From Rhynchobatus australiae (taxonomy: Eukaryota): 64,000 nt of DNA. How positions within the stretch are numbered: position 1 is the first letter of the stretch; the number at the start of each line of letters is the position of its first letter. The translations under genes were made by a program, and so were the position numbers. The notes beneath the pieces were generated by a model. That model was not told where the DNA came from. It worked only from the letters and a program-made list of their open reading frames with translations, and ran no database searches. The DNA lies in NCBI GenBank assembly GCA_034780895.1, contig JAUZTB010000080.1, positions 13,160,098-13,224,097 of the forward strand. The letters run 5' to 3'. This document shows positions 3,880 to 64,000 of the stretch, piece by piece.

Positions 3880-4700
3880 GTAAAGTCATTGTCACGTGTA
3901 CCAAGGTACATCGAAGAAAATGCTTTGCATGGCATCCATACGGATAATTTCCTCCGATCAGTGCATTGAAAGATGAAAAGGTAAAACAATAACACAATGC
4001 AGAATAGATGTTACCTTTACACAGGAAGTGCAGTGTAGGCAGACAATAAGGCGCAAGTTCATAACGAGGGAGATTGTGAGGTCAAGAGTCCATTTTATCG
4101 GACAAGAGGTCTGTTTAGTGGTCTGATAACTGCGGGATACAATCTGTCCTTGAGCCTTCAAGAGTGGTAAGAGCTTTCGGGCTATTGCATCTTCTACCGA
4201 ACAGAAGGGGTGAAAAGATTGAATGCCATGAGAGTAAGAGGTATTTGATTATATCGGCTGCTTTACTGAGGTAGCGAGAAGAGCAGACAAGGTCCATGTA
4301 GGGCAGGCTGATTATTTTTCGTGATGCCCTGAGCTCTGTCCACATCTCTCTGCAGTTTCTCGGGGTCCCGGGTCCCGGGCAGTACAGTTGCTGTGACAAG
4401 CAGTGATGCATCTGGTAAAGTGCTTTCTATGGACCCGTACAATTTCTGCGCATCTGTAAAATAATGCTGAAACTCGACGGGGATATTTCTAATTTCTGTT
4501 GTCTCATGAGAAAGTACAGCTGCTGTTGCAATTTTTGGCCGTAGTTTCTCCGTGATTGTACCAGGACAACCGAATGGTGATATTTACAACAAGGGACCTG
4601 AAGATTTTAACCAGTTTGTAACTCGGATTAGCAACTCACTACCAGCGAACCGCATGAATTAACCAACCTGCACACGGGAGCACTAAAGAGGAATGGACGT
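3880..4700 (-). mobile_element. Rex1/Babar-type LINE 3' fragment (diverged)
   Basis: Reverse-complement similarity to 11340-11715 (gattgtgaggtcaagagtccat, gtgcagtgtaggcagacaataagg). Confidence 0.7.
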
Positions 4701-5790: not shown

Positions 5791-8284
5791 GCCTCGCTCG
5801 TTCGTTGCGTTTCGGGACAGTTGAAAGAGCTCTGATAGCTGGAAAAGGAACAGAAAGGTTTACTAAAATATTAAGGGATATTCGTGTGGGTGAGACGGCA
5901 TTATCCTTTTTTTGTTTCAAAATTAGAAAAATGTTAATTGTGCAGGTCGCAGAGCTCTCTGAGATCCATTAAACCAGCTGTCCTAATGCGTGCTTCAGCA
6001 AAGACACCTGTGAAGCTGGTACGAATCATCTGAGTCGACGTAGGAGTAATGTCAACGTTGATGGAACATCTCGATGACCACGTATCACACAGCATTGAAG
6101 GCTTTGGACAAAGTGCAAGTAAATAGGACTTGGTTTGATGTGCACTTGATTGTCGGCATAGATATGGTGCGGTGAACAGCAATTCTGCATGTCTCTGTGA
6201 ACACCAGTAAACTGCACGTTCTGGAAATAGGAAACTAAACAGTAAAAGAAAACAAAATCGGGCAAACATACAACCCGTCAGGCAGCAACTGTGGAAATGG
6301 TCAGCGTTTCCGTTCCGGGATCTTCCAAAGGAGATGCAAATTATTTCATGTTTCACACGTTACCTGTTGGAAAATTAAATCTTGATTAAAAATGTTATTT
6401 CCAACAACACGCAGTTGGGACCCAACGGACCAATCCTGTCCATTACAACAATTAGTGACTAAATCCCGAAAGTATGTACTACATACGGCAGATATGACCC
6501 GACATTTGTAACTTCTCGGTATCCCCTTCTCACCTCTGTGTATTCCACCCAACTTACGTTACAACCAATCTCTTTTGACATAGTCAAACACAGCAATCAC
6601 ACGCTGTACATTCATTCAAATCAATAATCTAATTTGTACAGAGTTGAATTCACTGATCCTTCTGCCGCACTAGTCGTTACTTCTCTCCGATAATACCAGG
6701 CTCATTTATACAAAGTCAGCTTTATTTTTCCCAGGCACTTTTCTATCTTGGGCAACACGCGCTTACCTCCGACAACACGCGCTTTTACGTTGTGCAGTAA
6801 CTTTTGATGTGACAGTGTGTCAGTTCCTTCTGGAAATTTATTGCGAATCCATCTCCGGTTATCTTTTATCCACAGCACAAAAAAAAAGAATAAGTCAGTC
6901 AAACAAGTCACTTCAGAAAAGAGACTACTCCTATTTACTGGGAGTTTTCTAAGATTCCACCGGTAAAATCTTCTCTAATTGTCATGGTTCTGATTACTGG
7001 TCCTTGATTAGGCTCCTCAGATGCCTTGTTGTACAGTACATGGATTCCATGCTGGACAGATTGTATAATGACACACACCTGAGCCCATCAGCGGCCTAGC
7101 ATAAGTACCTGGGTTTCTCTAGCACTAATTGCCAGAGTATTGGTCAACCTTTGGGTATACTTTGGCTCCTGGCTGTTTAGAGTGGTCTACTCTAGAGCAG
7201 CCTTGTGTTCTCTGTTCCTCTTTGAATATCCAGTTCATGTTGGGATTCCTCATCAGATCTCCAAGGCAAGATTCCTTCCAGTTGCTGCCCATGTTTGGTC
7301 CTGAGGAAGTATCCTGACTCCAGTTTTGTACCAGTGAGCTTGCTCTTGGCTCAACATTGTGACAATTTTGTATTTTAAAGTGACACCCAACACAGCTGGA
7401 TTGCGAAATGTTTATGTTGACCAAAAAAAACTGCTAGAAAAATGGGGTCAACGCTGACTTGTCACTTGCATCGAATGTTTGCAGTATCCTGATCTCCATG
7501 CGGTGACTTTGGGATGCTCGAATGTTTATTCTTAATGATCTCATTGAAGCACAACTTTGAGGAGGACTGACAGGAGAGATAGAGAAGATGATTTCAGTCT
7601 CCCCCAGTGAGGACATCTAGAACTAGAGGCAGCATTTTGGAATAAGAGATGACCCTTTAAAACTGTGACTCTCTGGAATTCTCTACCCCAGTGAGCTGTG
7701 GAATTGGAGTCATTGACTATTTTCAAGGGAGAGACAGCTTTGAAAAAGGAATCAAGGAGTACAGGGAAGACTGGGAAAGAAACACCGAGGCCAAGTCTGG
7801 ATCAGCTAAAATCTTACTGAATGGGGGAAGCAGGCTCGAGGTCAAAGTGGCCTCATTTTTCTTCTGTTGTTCTTTAGATCTGGACTTCTTCATTCTTAGT
7901 TTTGTACTGCTCCACAAGTGGCCCTTCAATCTTTGGACTCTTGCTTTTGGAACTCCTTGTCCCTGCATTCCTCCTTGATCCTAAAATAACTTCTCTCTAA
8001 TCAGACGTCAATCAACCTTTCCTGCAGCTCTCCACTTTTCCTTTATCACCCATCCACTGGGTAAGCACTGCTTTATCTTAAGTGCTCATTGGACCTTTAC
8101 ACATTAAAAAATACTACAAATAAATAAAAGTTGCTGTCACCCAACCCAGGAAGTGGTTGCAAAATTTTGTTTTCAGTTCAGTGTTTAGTATTTTTCTTTT
8201 AAAATATTTCAAACACTCAAAAGTACAGCAAGTCCACAGCCAGGCATTTAATGAATGGCCTCAAGGTTCACAAGAATTAAATGG

Positions 8285-21332: not shown

Positions 21333-21398
21333 GTGGCATGATTCCCTGGCTGGCCAGCTCTTCGCGTGTCCGCCGTTGCTGAAGCTTTAGCTGCAGTA
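21333..21398 (-). CDS. MRTFA: RPEL repeat 1 exon of MRTF-A: (V)LQLKLQQRRTREELASQGIMP(P)
   Basis: 66-nt phase 1-1 exon. Branch point CACTAAC (21424-21430), pyrimidine tract and ...ctggcag| acceptor; CCAC|gtaagt donor. LQLKL..REEL..SQG is the MRTF-A form (MRTF-B has LQLRL..REQLVDQG). Too short to appear in the ORF track. Confidence 0.96.
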
Positions 21399-41145: not shown

Positions 41146-41272
41146 CTTCTTTTATACCACGGTAACCGTGCTGAATACTATCAGTGCAGCACTGTCCTTT
41201 CCATGTGCTGCCGCCAGTGACAGACAGAATCTCAGACAAGACAGACTTGATTTTCCTGCTCTTGTCCAGCAT
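41146..41272 (-). CDS. MRTFA: Putative alternative first coding exon of MRTFA: MLDKSRKIKSVLSEILSVTGGSTWKGQCCTDSIQHGYRGIKE, spliced to VLQLKLQQ
   Basis: ACCATGC start context, 127 nt (42 codons + 1) with no stop, donor GAAG|gttagt in phase 1 matching the RPEL1 acceptor. Resembles the human MRTF-B N-terminus MIDSSKK..EILT..KECLE..SLKE|VLQL (from memory). Non-repetitive, with CpGs retained upstream. Confidence 0.72.
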
Positions 41273-52060: not shown

Positions 52061-54119
52061 CTCACAGAACAATCCCCTTACCNNNNNNNNNNNNNNNNNN
52101 NNNNNNNNNNNNNNNNNNNNNNNNNNNNNNNNNNNNNNNNNNNNNNNNNNNNNNNNNNNNNNNNNNNNNNNNNNNNNNNNNNNNNNNNNNNNNNNNNNNN
52201 NNNNNNNNNNNNNNNNNNNNNNNNNNNNNNNNNNNNNNNNNNNNNNNNNNNNNNNNNNNNNNNNNNNNNNNNNNNNNNNNNNNNNNNNNNNNNNNNNNNN
52301 NNNNNNNNNNNNNNNNNNNNNNNNNNNNNNNNNNNNNNNNNNNNNNNNNNNNNNNNNNNNNNNNNNNNNNNNNNNNNNNNNNNNNNNNNNNNNNNNNNNN
52401 NNNNNNNNNNNNNNNNNNNNNNNNNNNNNNNNNNNNNNNNNNNNNNNNNNNNNNNNNNNNNNNNNNNNNNNNNNNNNNNNNNNNNNNNNNNNNNNNNNNN
52501 NNNNNNNNNNNNNNNNNNNNNNNNNNNNNNNNNNNNNNNNNNNNNNNNNNNNNNNNNNNNNNNNNNNNNNNNNNNNNNNNNNNNNNNNNNNNNNNNNNNN
52601 NNNNNNNNNNNNNNNNNNNNNNNNNNTGGCTGCTTAATGCATCACCATCTCCAGTTTTGATGAAAGGTCATTGACCCTAATGTTAACCATTTTTCTCTCC
52701 ACAGATGCTACCTAGCAATAAGTATTCCCAGCATGTTGTTTTCTTTCTGGATTTCCAGAAACCTCCAGAAGGTAAAACTCAAAGCACAGTAAAGCAGTAG
52801 GTGATTTGTTGATGTAGGAACCTGTGACACTAGAATCTATCGTCAGAATAAAATATGAAAGTAGTAAGGGCAAGCACCATCTTAGATGATGCACTTCAAA
52901 CAAGCAATTATATCATTAGTGAAACAGAGTATATTCTATCAACTGCAGGCACTGACCTGTGCTAAAACAAGATTTTTCTTTTAATGCAAAAGCCAAAATA
53001 TGATCTGGGTCACTGTACCAAAAGTGACCTTTTGTCAACACCCCAGCCCAGCAGCCAACCACCACCCCCTCCCCATGTTCTTCCCCCCACCCCGGCCAGA
53101 AATAGACTTGTGCATCTCACCTTGTAGCAACCTCTCCTCCTGTTGGCTGAATGTGGAGTGGCACTGGCGTCTAAGGCGTGGAGAAATCCGCCCTTCGTTT
53201 GCCTGCCCTTCCATCTGAGGTCCAGTTTCAGAGGAGTGCTCTTTGGGGAAGAAGAGTAGAGAGTCAATCTATCTCACAGCTCAGAAAAGTCCATCAGCAC
53301 TACTACCCCAGCCGCACAAAACAAAACTCCTGCTTTGAGACCAGGATGATGGATAGTCAGATATTGAAGTATAATGCTTTTGGGGGACTAAACAAGTTGA
53401 ATAAACAATGAAGCACCACAGACACTGCAGTGGAACTTCACTGGTAACCAATGCACAACATTCTACAGTAAAGCACAAGCTGCTTCATCCTTTGCCAAGC
53501 ACAGTCACAAATAATTTCCAGATTTCAGCCAAAAATAATGAATGCAAGTCCTAAAGAAACTGCCAAATGTTTTACTAACTCAAGAACTAAGGACATCACA
53601 TAGTAGCAGTCAAATGACAATGCCACCAACATAAAACACTTGCAATACCAATATTTAAATGCAAACATTTGATTGTCCCCAACTTCAGTCTGGCTGTGTA
53701 TCATAAAATACAGATTCCAGCCCTGTCTGCCAATGCTGACAACCTAGGTAGTGGAGTGGGTCAGATAGGGATTACCCCTTCTGTAGGGGTGCACCCACTG
53801 CCATGCACTGTGCTGTCACAAAGCTCAGACTGGGAACTACCTGGAGGCTATAGGTATGAAGATAGGCTTCACTATTCCAAGGTTCAGTTTGCAAATTTAT
53901 CATGTTGCATCAGGCATTCCCTCAAAGCAACCTACTTCTCCTTGCTTATCCAACGATAGACAAAGGCAAGTGTAAACTCCTGTGTCATGTGGAGAACTTC
54001 TTTAAACCTTCAAAAATATAATCTATTCATACAATTTCAAATACATACAATGCAGAAAATGCCAGTAAACAGTTCCATCACATGTAACATGACTCCAATT
54101 ACTTAACATTAGCATGACT

Positions 54120-63049: not shown

Positions 63050-63239
63050 CATTTTTCCTCTTGTTCAAAGGCGAAAAGCCGTTGCTTGACTGCAGCGTGA
63101 GCTCTTGCAGTTCATTTGCGACCGCTTCACTCTGTGGACTCGGAGCTGATCCATCTTCTTCACTATCGCCAACCCCACCACCGTCTGACCCATTACCAGA
63201 AACGGCGAGGGGAAGGCTCACTTCATTCGGCAAATCCAC
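63050..63239 (-). CDS. MRTFA: MRTF-A long-isoform N-terminal coding exon. Whole exon is 63050-63257; coding from a putative GTG start at 63239: VDLPNEVSLPLAVSGNGSDGGGVGDSEEDGSAPSPQSEAVANELQELTLQSSNGFSPLNKRKN
   Basis: Acceptor ttccctctccaccttctgttttcattgttacag|G at 63258/63257 and donor AATG|gtgagc at 63050/63049 (phase 1). The PSPQSEAVANELQEL and PLxxRKN motifs match the MRTF-A N-terminus. Joins in frame to the RPEL1 exon (G+TA = Val). Confidence 0.93.
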
Positions 63240-64000
63240 TTTGACTTGAATATTAACCTGTAACAATGAAAACAGAAGGTGGAGAGGGAATTGATTAAAA
63301 AATGAACACATTCTGACCACTGTACTATGTTCTAACAAATGAACAATAAAAACAGGTGAAAATCAATTAATTTTCAATTTGGAAAATTAAGCTCTTTGCA
63401 GCCATTAGTAATGTGAATCTGCTCTGAGAACTTTGCATGACAAGCCCCTGGAAAACATAGATCGCTTTCTTTGTCTCAGGATCAAACTTACAGCAAAGAT
63501 AAGCACCCATAACCAAATTCACCACTACCTCAGTATATACCAGCAGTTTTTGAATATCATTAACTCAAACCTACCACCAAGCTTGTGGTCTTCATGACAG
63601 CAATAGTCCCCACTTTACACTGCAGAGGTGCAGACCATCTGCAGCAGCAACCTCAAAGCACTGAAGATGACCACTGGTATCTCATAAAGTCCTCCAAATC
63701 CACTGGAGTGGGGAACCAGGCAGTGTGTACTTCCTAGCCAATGTGCCCAGCATCGTGGCTCTAATTACATTCAAATAACTCTGATGGATGGGACATACCA
63801 TCTAAGCTCCATAATAGTAAGACATTTCCACAAGGACAAAGTGTTTCAAGGATGTTCTCAAAGGCTCCATTAAGCAAATGAGACATTATAGGAATGGAGG
63901 AGCACCACTTGGGCAGGCACTGGGCATCTGAAGTCTCTTCAATGACAGCACAATGAGGATGAGTGAAAACAAAGGAGCACAGAACCTCCAAGCAATGTGT

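Follow-up and report, generated by a model that had tools for sequence, protein, structure and literature searches.

Initiation of MRTF-A at a codon other than AUG is a mechanism already known from human MRTFA. Sections of a 2021 review (PMC8079280) place the start of MRTFA/MKL1_L (transcript variants 1, 3, and 4) at a GTG in exon 3, with credit to Scharenberg et al. 2014, and describe the translational control of MRTFA as a subject about which little to nothing is known. A non-AUG long form has also been proposed in rodents, where the isoforms are named MAL(fl) and MAL(met) in mouse and FLMKL1, MKL1met, BSAC, and MELODY in rat; according to excerpts of PMC3821035, the rodent papers favor a CTG that lies eight codons 3' of the GTG. 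Rat MELODY begins with M-G-G from an alternative first exon, which lies ahead of the GTG-bearing exon (PMC3821035). Mouse S33 is a phosphosite that boosts the N-terminal export signal, and parts of PMC4963197 report that S33 and NES1 promote nuclear export. Conserved non-AUG N-terminal extensions of vertebrates have been catalogued (PMC3105428, in the sections concerned), in a paper whose main text does not name MKL1 or MRTF, and MRTFA/MKL1 was not found in the supplements of PMC9789052 that were searched. Titles and abstracts gave no literature on a GUG start in fish MRTF-A, which subscription papers and supplements may cover.

Here, we describe the corresponding region of the cartilaginous fish Rhynchobatus australiae, using a stretch of 64,000 nucleotides (the window) and the neighboring parts of its contig. 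Judged by sequence comparison, the long MRTF-A isoform of this fish probably starts at the GUG at 63239, the codon reported in human (Table 1). The initial annotation had pointed to this GTG, in the context AAA GTG G, within an exon without an in-frame ATG. Both observations were borne out: the codon reads as described and is in frame with the main ORF, and scanning the exon (exon C) from end to end gave no in-frame ATG. The acceptor at 63257 is in phase 0, and the GTG lies 18 nt (6 codons) past it. An in-frame GTG with R at -3 and G at +4 arose within the first 20 codons in 6.2% of 20,000 base shuffles of exon C, and anywhere in the exon in 20%; this chance is not negligible, and the case for the GTG start therefore rests on homology and not on context. 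No hairpin 3' of the GUG was found beyond what shuffles give (z -0.50; 57 of 200 shuffles fold equally well), and a search for short-protein homologs returned no candidate. The human peptide given in the initial annotation does not agree with the mammalian records seen, a set without a human one, which read VDFSSVVCLPPSV; between these records and the fish extension the first 13 codons do align without gaps, with 6 of 13 residues identical by eye.

Table 1. Features of the MRTF-A locus, in window positions unless a contig is named.
Feature	Position	Strand	Remarks
Exon A	G000:C80:13263348-13263276 (L005:9251-9179), outside window	-	73 nt; joined to B in 4/4 runs
Exon B	G000:C80:13262921-13262841, outside window	-	81 nt; joined to C in 3/3 RNA-type runs
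Putative exon X	G000:C80:13230299-13230248 (L002:6202-6151), outside window, 6.9 kb upstream	-	In-frame weak ATG
Exon C, counterpart of human exon 3	63050..63257	-	208 nt; edges match spliced contigs; AG/GT flanks
GTG codon, likely start of the long MRTF-A isoform	63237..63239	-	A at -3, G at +4; paralog ATG and rat GTG
Five out-of-frame ATGs 3' of the GTG	First bases 63226, 63193, 63154, 63115, 63052	-	63154 has A at -3 and G at +4
Ser of SPQSE, counterpart of mouse S33	63138..63140	-	Translation; numbering inferred from rat sequence
NELQELTLQ, counterpart of the Crm1-dependent NES1 core (mouse 41-49, NELQELSLQ)	63090..63116	-	Translation
Exon D, cassette exon	53121..53240	-	120 nt; joined to C in 3/3 RNA-type contigs
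Coding part of putative alternative 5' exon	41146..41272	-	Own ATG (ACC ATG C); phase 1 into RPEL1 exon
RPEL1 exon (RRTREEL, A-type ending)	21333..21398	-	GIMP Met at 21339-21337

The exon C peptide is 84-90% identical to MRTF-A-like records of Mobula, Chiloscyllium, Hemiscyllium, and Carcharodon (four of nine matches) and approximately 50-57% identical to amniotes. As stated in part of the 2021 review, an RPEL1 of the form RRxxxEL characterizes MRTF-A and a QL ending MRTF-B (PMC8079280); RPEL1 is RRTREEL at this locus and RRTREQL in a paralog on contig C127. The N-terminal exon is also of the A type (ANELQEL, not AHEFQEL), AHEFQEL being the reading of the C127 paralog and of a baboon MRTF-B record, and the locus has three RPEL motifs, with RPEL2 and RPEL3 on the same contig (C80) downstream of the window. 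The genome carries this separate B-type paralog as well as a third paralog on C62. The assignment of the locus to MRTF-A is based on the diagnostic residues, the database names, and the separate paralogs.

The MRTF-B exon (G000:C127, L025) provides a second line of evidence. It aligns to exon C without a gap and places ATG-GAT opposite GTG-GAT; the two exons are similar in length (206 vs. 208 nt), both have A at -3 and G at +4, and the start-type codon lies at equal distances in the two from the donor (190 nt) and from SP[QR]SE (33 codons). What sets the paralog apart from exon C is its AUG, with an in-frame stop just upstream (9 nt before the ATG) and another in-frame AUG after 13 codons. Over the 99 nt after the start the two are 34% identical (34 identities), a level matched by 1.3% of 10,000 shuffles, and their ungapped protein score was reached by 2.0% of shuffles; BLASTP of the two extensions aligned the last 32 residues only. 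Because the spacing from start to motif varies among lineages (40 codons in amniote MRTF-A, 21 in baboon MRTF-B), the match between the paralogs may partly be luck. A gapless alignment in which AUG faces GUG nevertheless gives independent support, short of proof, for this codon as the start position, which possibly predates the MRTF-A/B duplication. To the eye, the in-frame stretch that precedes the Met of mammalian MRTF-B in four records (P0166, P0175, P0182, and P0192) is similar to the MRTF-A extension of the ray; it could be either a vestige or an extension of MRTF-B initiated without an AUG.

The Val codon was read directly as GTG only in this genome and in rat, whose cDNA has AAG GTG G at the site. 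K-V-D occurs in 134 of 165 stored A-type records bearing the SPQSEAV motif, a set that is redundant and mostly amniote; 11 records begin at the V, one reads K-V-E, and two, both Logan calls, begin with M-D, which would point to GTG provided that M is what the caller outputs for a GTG start. The 17 records without K-V-D comprise 11 teleost-type N-termini, 5 that start downstream, and 1 that enters the exon late. Sharks, rays, amniotes, caecilians, and newts all have records that retain K-V-D; this motif fixes A at -3 and G at +4, leaving the third base of the Val codon unfixed. Four frog records that fell outside the SPQSEAV motif have R-V-D or I-V-D after an upstream Met, and the turtle, frog, and caecilian models have upstream Met peptides that are consistent within lineages.

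Exon C is included in 17 of 33 shark and ray records (six species), all 17 of which have K-V-D and no Met inside the exon; with the identity of the extension to sharks, rays, and amniotes, this agrees with coding constraint on the extension. Ahead of the acceptor, the shark and ray N-termini differ from one another, and exon D is where several RefSeq models begin, as is to be expected when predictors seek an ATG. Conservation does not drop at the GUG: in 68 tetrapod records, the seven codons upstream of the V are 79-100% conserved versus 72-100% downstream, and the drop comes at the exon edge, 7 codons upstream of the V. The conservation of the codons before the V may be explained by AUG-bearing exons that read through them.

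The initial annotation had proposed that the GUG has been kept since the jawed-vertebrate ancestor. This holds for the origin, which is likely to lie at or before that ancestor given that cartilaginous fish and amniotes share the site and its K-V-D context, but not for every descendant, as the site is lacking from teleost-type exons and the frog records have R or I in place of K. In a teleost-type contig (L022), an in-frame stop is followed within this exon by an ordinary ATG, and the Albula and Myripristis records are without K-V-D. We regard the GUG site as likely ancestral but not universal; the comparison supports orthology of this GTG with the published mammalian GUG start, which is likely to be very old, older than the split between sharks and bony fish. 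The metagenome scan gave at least two loci among the 595 stretches examined, namely L022 and L023, and the latter was dropped as a bacterial chance match. Chimaera, gar, bichir, coelacanth, and lungfish were absent from the homologue matches listed (in one case, the best 120 of 815). Seven teleost-type records (P0009, P0174, P0176, P0177, P0180, P0183, and P0184) have either T-L-A or T-M-A at one site, where ACN precedes and GCN follows the variable codon; this could represent a second, independent non-AUG (CUG or UUG) start in ray-finned fish.

The leader was traced with RNA-type contigs; they come from runs of a single study on a close relative, and their RNA status is a guess: the run search gave none recorded as RNA, and four runs labeled "RNA?" were used because their contigs proved to be spliced, skipping introns at GT-AG edges. 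In three of three RNA-type runs, the contigs cover exactly exon C and extend on both sides, and their upstream loose end maps 39.5 kb from exon C, to exon B. The relative's exon C differs at 5 places, 3 of them listed, and the GTG and the exon A stops discussed here were read in R. australiae itself. In the GTG frame, exon A of this genome contains TGA and TAA, 153 and 147 nt upstream of the GTG, and from these stops onward the first in-frame ATG is found only in exon D, also when exon B is skipped. An upstream exon with an in-frame ATG would have undermined the initial annotation, and neither the A-B-C nor the A-C leader supplies one, because the exon A stops exclude it whatever the unseen first approximately 69 nt contain; the putative exon X, which is not part of these leaders, does carry a weak in-frame ATG. 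Exon 1 itself (approximately 69 nt) was not found, and two CpG-rich upstream stretches could not be tied to a transcript. These lie near G000:C80 13298098 and 13405098 (L009 and L020), and one of them may be a promoter or exon 1. Three intronic repeats (L005:1003-1336, 4009-4676, and 7349-8016) have very high summed contig depth in the RNA-type runs and are probably abundant interspersed repeats.

The leader contains two short upstream ORFs. The first (uORF1) begins at an out-of-frame AUG of exon A in strong context and runs for 17 codons to a stop within exon B; the second (uORF2) has an AUG that overlaps the uORF1 stop, and it ends in exon B after 6 codons, 71 nt short of the GTG. In sharks, exon A translates as N-G-T-E-L, with the letters AAT GGA in this genome, and the amniote exon preceding the GUG exon has W-H-G (27), W-N-G (1), or W-Y-G (1) in 29 records, which were chosen by the W-x-G motif and so give no frequency. 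The x-G motif is 14 codons from the exon end in shark exon A and 15 in amniotes, and H, N, and Y before G are the residues to be expected from a fixed out-of-frame ATG (x-AT-GG). The upstream AUG of exon A is, therefore, likely to be conserved from sharks to amniotes, with the homology of the exons and the ATG of the other lineages deduced from these protein records. The rat FLMKL1 cDNA appears by eye to be without exon A, and no ATG precedes its GTG.

Might the A-B-C transcript start at another near-cognate codon? The best candidate is a CUG in exon B, which would give a protein 26 residues longer. Exon B is open in the GTG frame over all 27 codons and contains in-frame CTG, ATT, TTG, and ACG; the CTG, 78 nt upstream of the GTG, has an equally good context (G at -3 and +4), and CUG is generally the most efficient non-AUG codon according to the relevant part of PMC3105428. 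An open frame of 27 codons is, however, common by chance (approximately 0.27 at 3 stops in 64), the exon B peptide had zero matches among 204 stored proteins, and shark models splice A straight to C. In addition, the CUG sits inside uORF2, 13 nt past the uORF1 stop, and such a distance is too short for efficient reinitiation. We consider a start in exon B quite unlikely.

A different source of a long form would be a 5' exon that carries an AUG of its own, in the manner of MELODY, with the GTG being mostly an internal valine. An in-frame ATG stands 39 nt ahead of a phase-0 GT donor in putative exon X, whose peptide resembles the N-terminus of six RefSeq models for Mobula hypostoma (E 0.04, with 8 of 13 residues matching). 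The published M-G-G before the exon in rat MELODY, the upstream Met peptides of turtle, frog, and caecilian, and the conserved codons before the V all fit this reading. On the other hand, the exon X ATG has C at both -3 and +4, upstream peptides vary between lineages, and exon B, not X, precedes C in all RNA-type contigs, from which exon X is absent (although contigs drop rare forms). An AUG exon of this type would also leave the near-invariant K-V-D and the paralog AUG unexplained, and it can coexist with use of the GUG. As the main source of the long form it is unlikely; long forms started at an AUG may accompany the one started at the GUG. A further stretch of the window, 58447-58391 on the minus strand, is 68% identical (E 4e-5) to Cetorhinus and Carcharodon model N-termini that lead into exon D, with an in-frame stop in the aligned stretch.

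The initial annotation took the GIMP Met at the end of RPEL1 for the first in frame. This is wrong for the spliced form, in which the exon D ATG at 53214-53212 (C at -3, G at +4) comes first, as residue 73 counted from the GTG, with the RR of RPEL1 following 39 codons later; only skipping of exon D would bring the GIMP Met, then residue 84, to first place. Nor did the proposal that leaky scanning yields a form without RPEL1 survive, since the exon D ATG and the five intervening out-of-frame ATGs make such a form unlikely. For the same reasons, we rejected the GIMP Met as the start of a main short form reached by leaky scanning. A short form would more likely retain RPEL1 and lose the N-terminal 72 residues, which hold the S33 and NES1 counterparts. 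Exon D with its Met is found in 19 of 33 shark and ray records, the Met being kept in 19 of the 19 that hold the exon; exon D was not noted among the tetrapod records inspected.

Downstream of exon D, the putative alternative 5' exon at 41272-41146 matches a Chiloscyllium RefSeq N-terminus (tblastn, 74%, E 1e-25). It is analogous to BSAC/MKL1_S, and would yield a putative AUG-started form with three RPEL motifs and without NES1. These two exons raise the question of whether this fish leaves exon C mostly untranslated and has its working starts at the AUG of exon D and in the alternative 41272 exon. The invariance of the exon D Met in sharks and rays, the RefSeq models that begin there, and the strong upstream AUG, which would reduce scanning to the GUG, are in line with this; the high protein identity of exon C to rays and sharks (84-90%) and its kept S33 and NES1 motifs are not, and the five out-of-frame ATGs would give the A-B-C leader poor access to exon D. 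We think it very unlikely that exon C goes largely untranslated.

With the GUG as the preferred start of the long isoform, expression from this locus might proceed as follows. Scanning ribosomes would meet the strong upstream AUG in exon A, with its 17-codon uORF, and then the 6-codon uORF in exon B. Any that bypass these uORFs or reinitiate would arrive at the GUG, 71 nt beyond the second stop, and would start there inefficiently, giving a product with NES1 and an S33-type phosphosite ahead of three RPEL motifs. Ribosomes that miss the GUG would mostly be caught by the five out-of-frame AUGs, and any in-frame AUG product of the A-B-C-D mRNA would start in exon D, retaining RPEL1 but not NES1. 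More tentatively, and with a good deal of doubt, one could imagine a two-part translational throttle on MRTF-A that has operated since before the diversification of jawed vertebrates, in which the ancestral AUG was kept in MRTF-B and weakened to GUG in MRTF-A, and a conserved leader upstream AUG (sharks to mammals) accompanies it. Together, these would set the dose of the isoform with the NES1/S33 export switch against that of the AUG-started isoforms without it, and could make the localization of MRTF-A respond to eIF2-alpha stress or to eIF1/eIF5 start-codon stringency.

What is new here is the cartilaginous-fish case, the comparison with the paralog, exon D, and the lead on the leader upstream AUG. 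The site gains evolutionary depth, and the disagreement between GUG and CUG gains a tie-break: the site occurs in cartilaginous fish, lies opposite a paralog AUG, and persists where the rodent CTG, aligned to CTT here, does not; as CTT is not a near-cognate codon, this favors GUG as the shared start. Long selection keeping the MRTF-A start weak is implied. The differing N-termini, or starts in exon D, suggest that shark and ray annotations are wrong at the 5' end. Because the extension carries NES1 and the S33 site, the choice of start would alter the shuttling of MRTF-A, and the upstream AUG, likely to be conserved, offers a lead on MRTFA translational control.

Compared with published systems, the locus has features of the conserved vertebrate non-AUG extensions, a class catalogued in PMC3105428 and to which Vangl2-Long belongs: a near-cognate codon, a good context, and a conserved extension that carries a localization signal. 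It differs from the HDGF example in PMC3105428, where no out-of-frame AUG lies between the starts; with five of them here, simple leaky scanning does not account for a short form. Rat FLMKL1 cDNA likewise has its GTG with A at -3 and G at +4, and rat MELODY resembles exon X in being an alternative AUG exon that feeds the GUG exon. Human MRTFA, in the parts of its description consulted, shares with it the gene, exon, and codon, a Kozak-type context, untranslated upstream exons, three RPEL motifs, and an alternative AUG-bearing 5' exon that joins the RPEL1 exon. The fish locus departs from it in having an extra 81-nt leader exon and a 120-nt cassette exon between the GUG exon and RPEL1, whose in-frame AUG precedes RPEL1, so that a downstream AUG form would here retain that motif.
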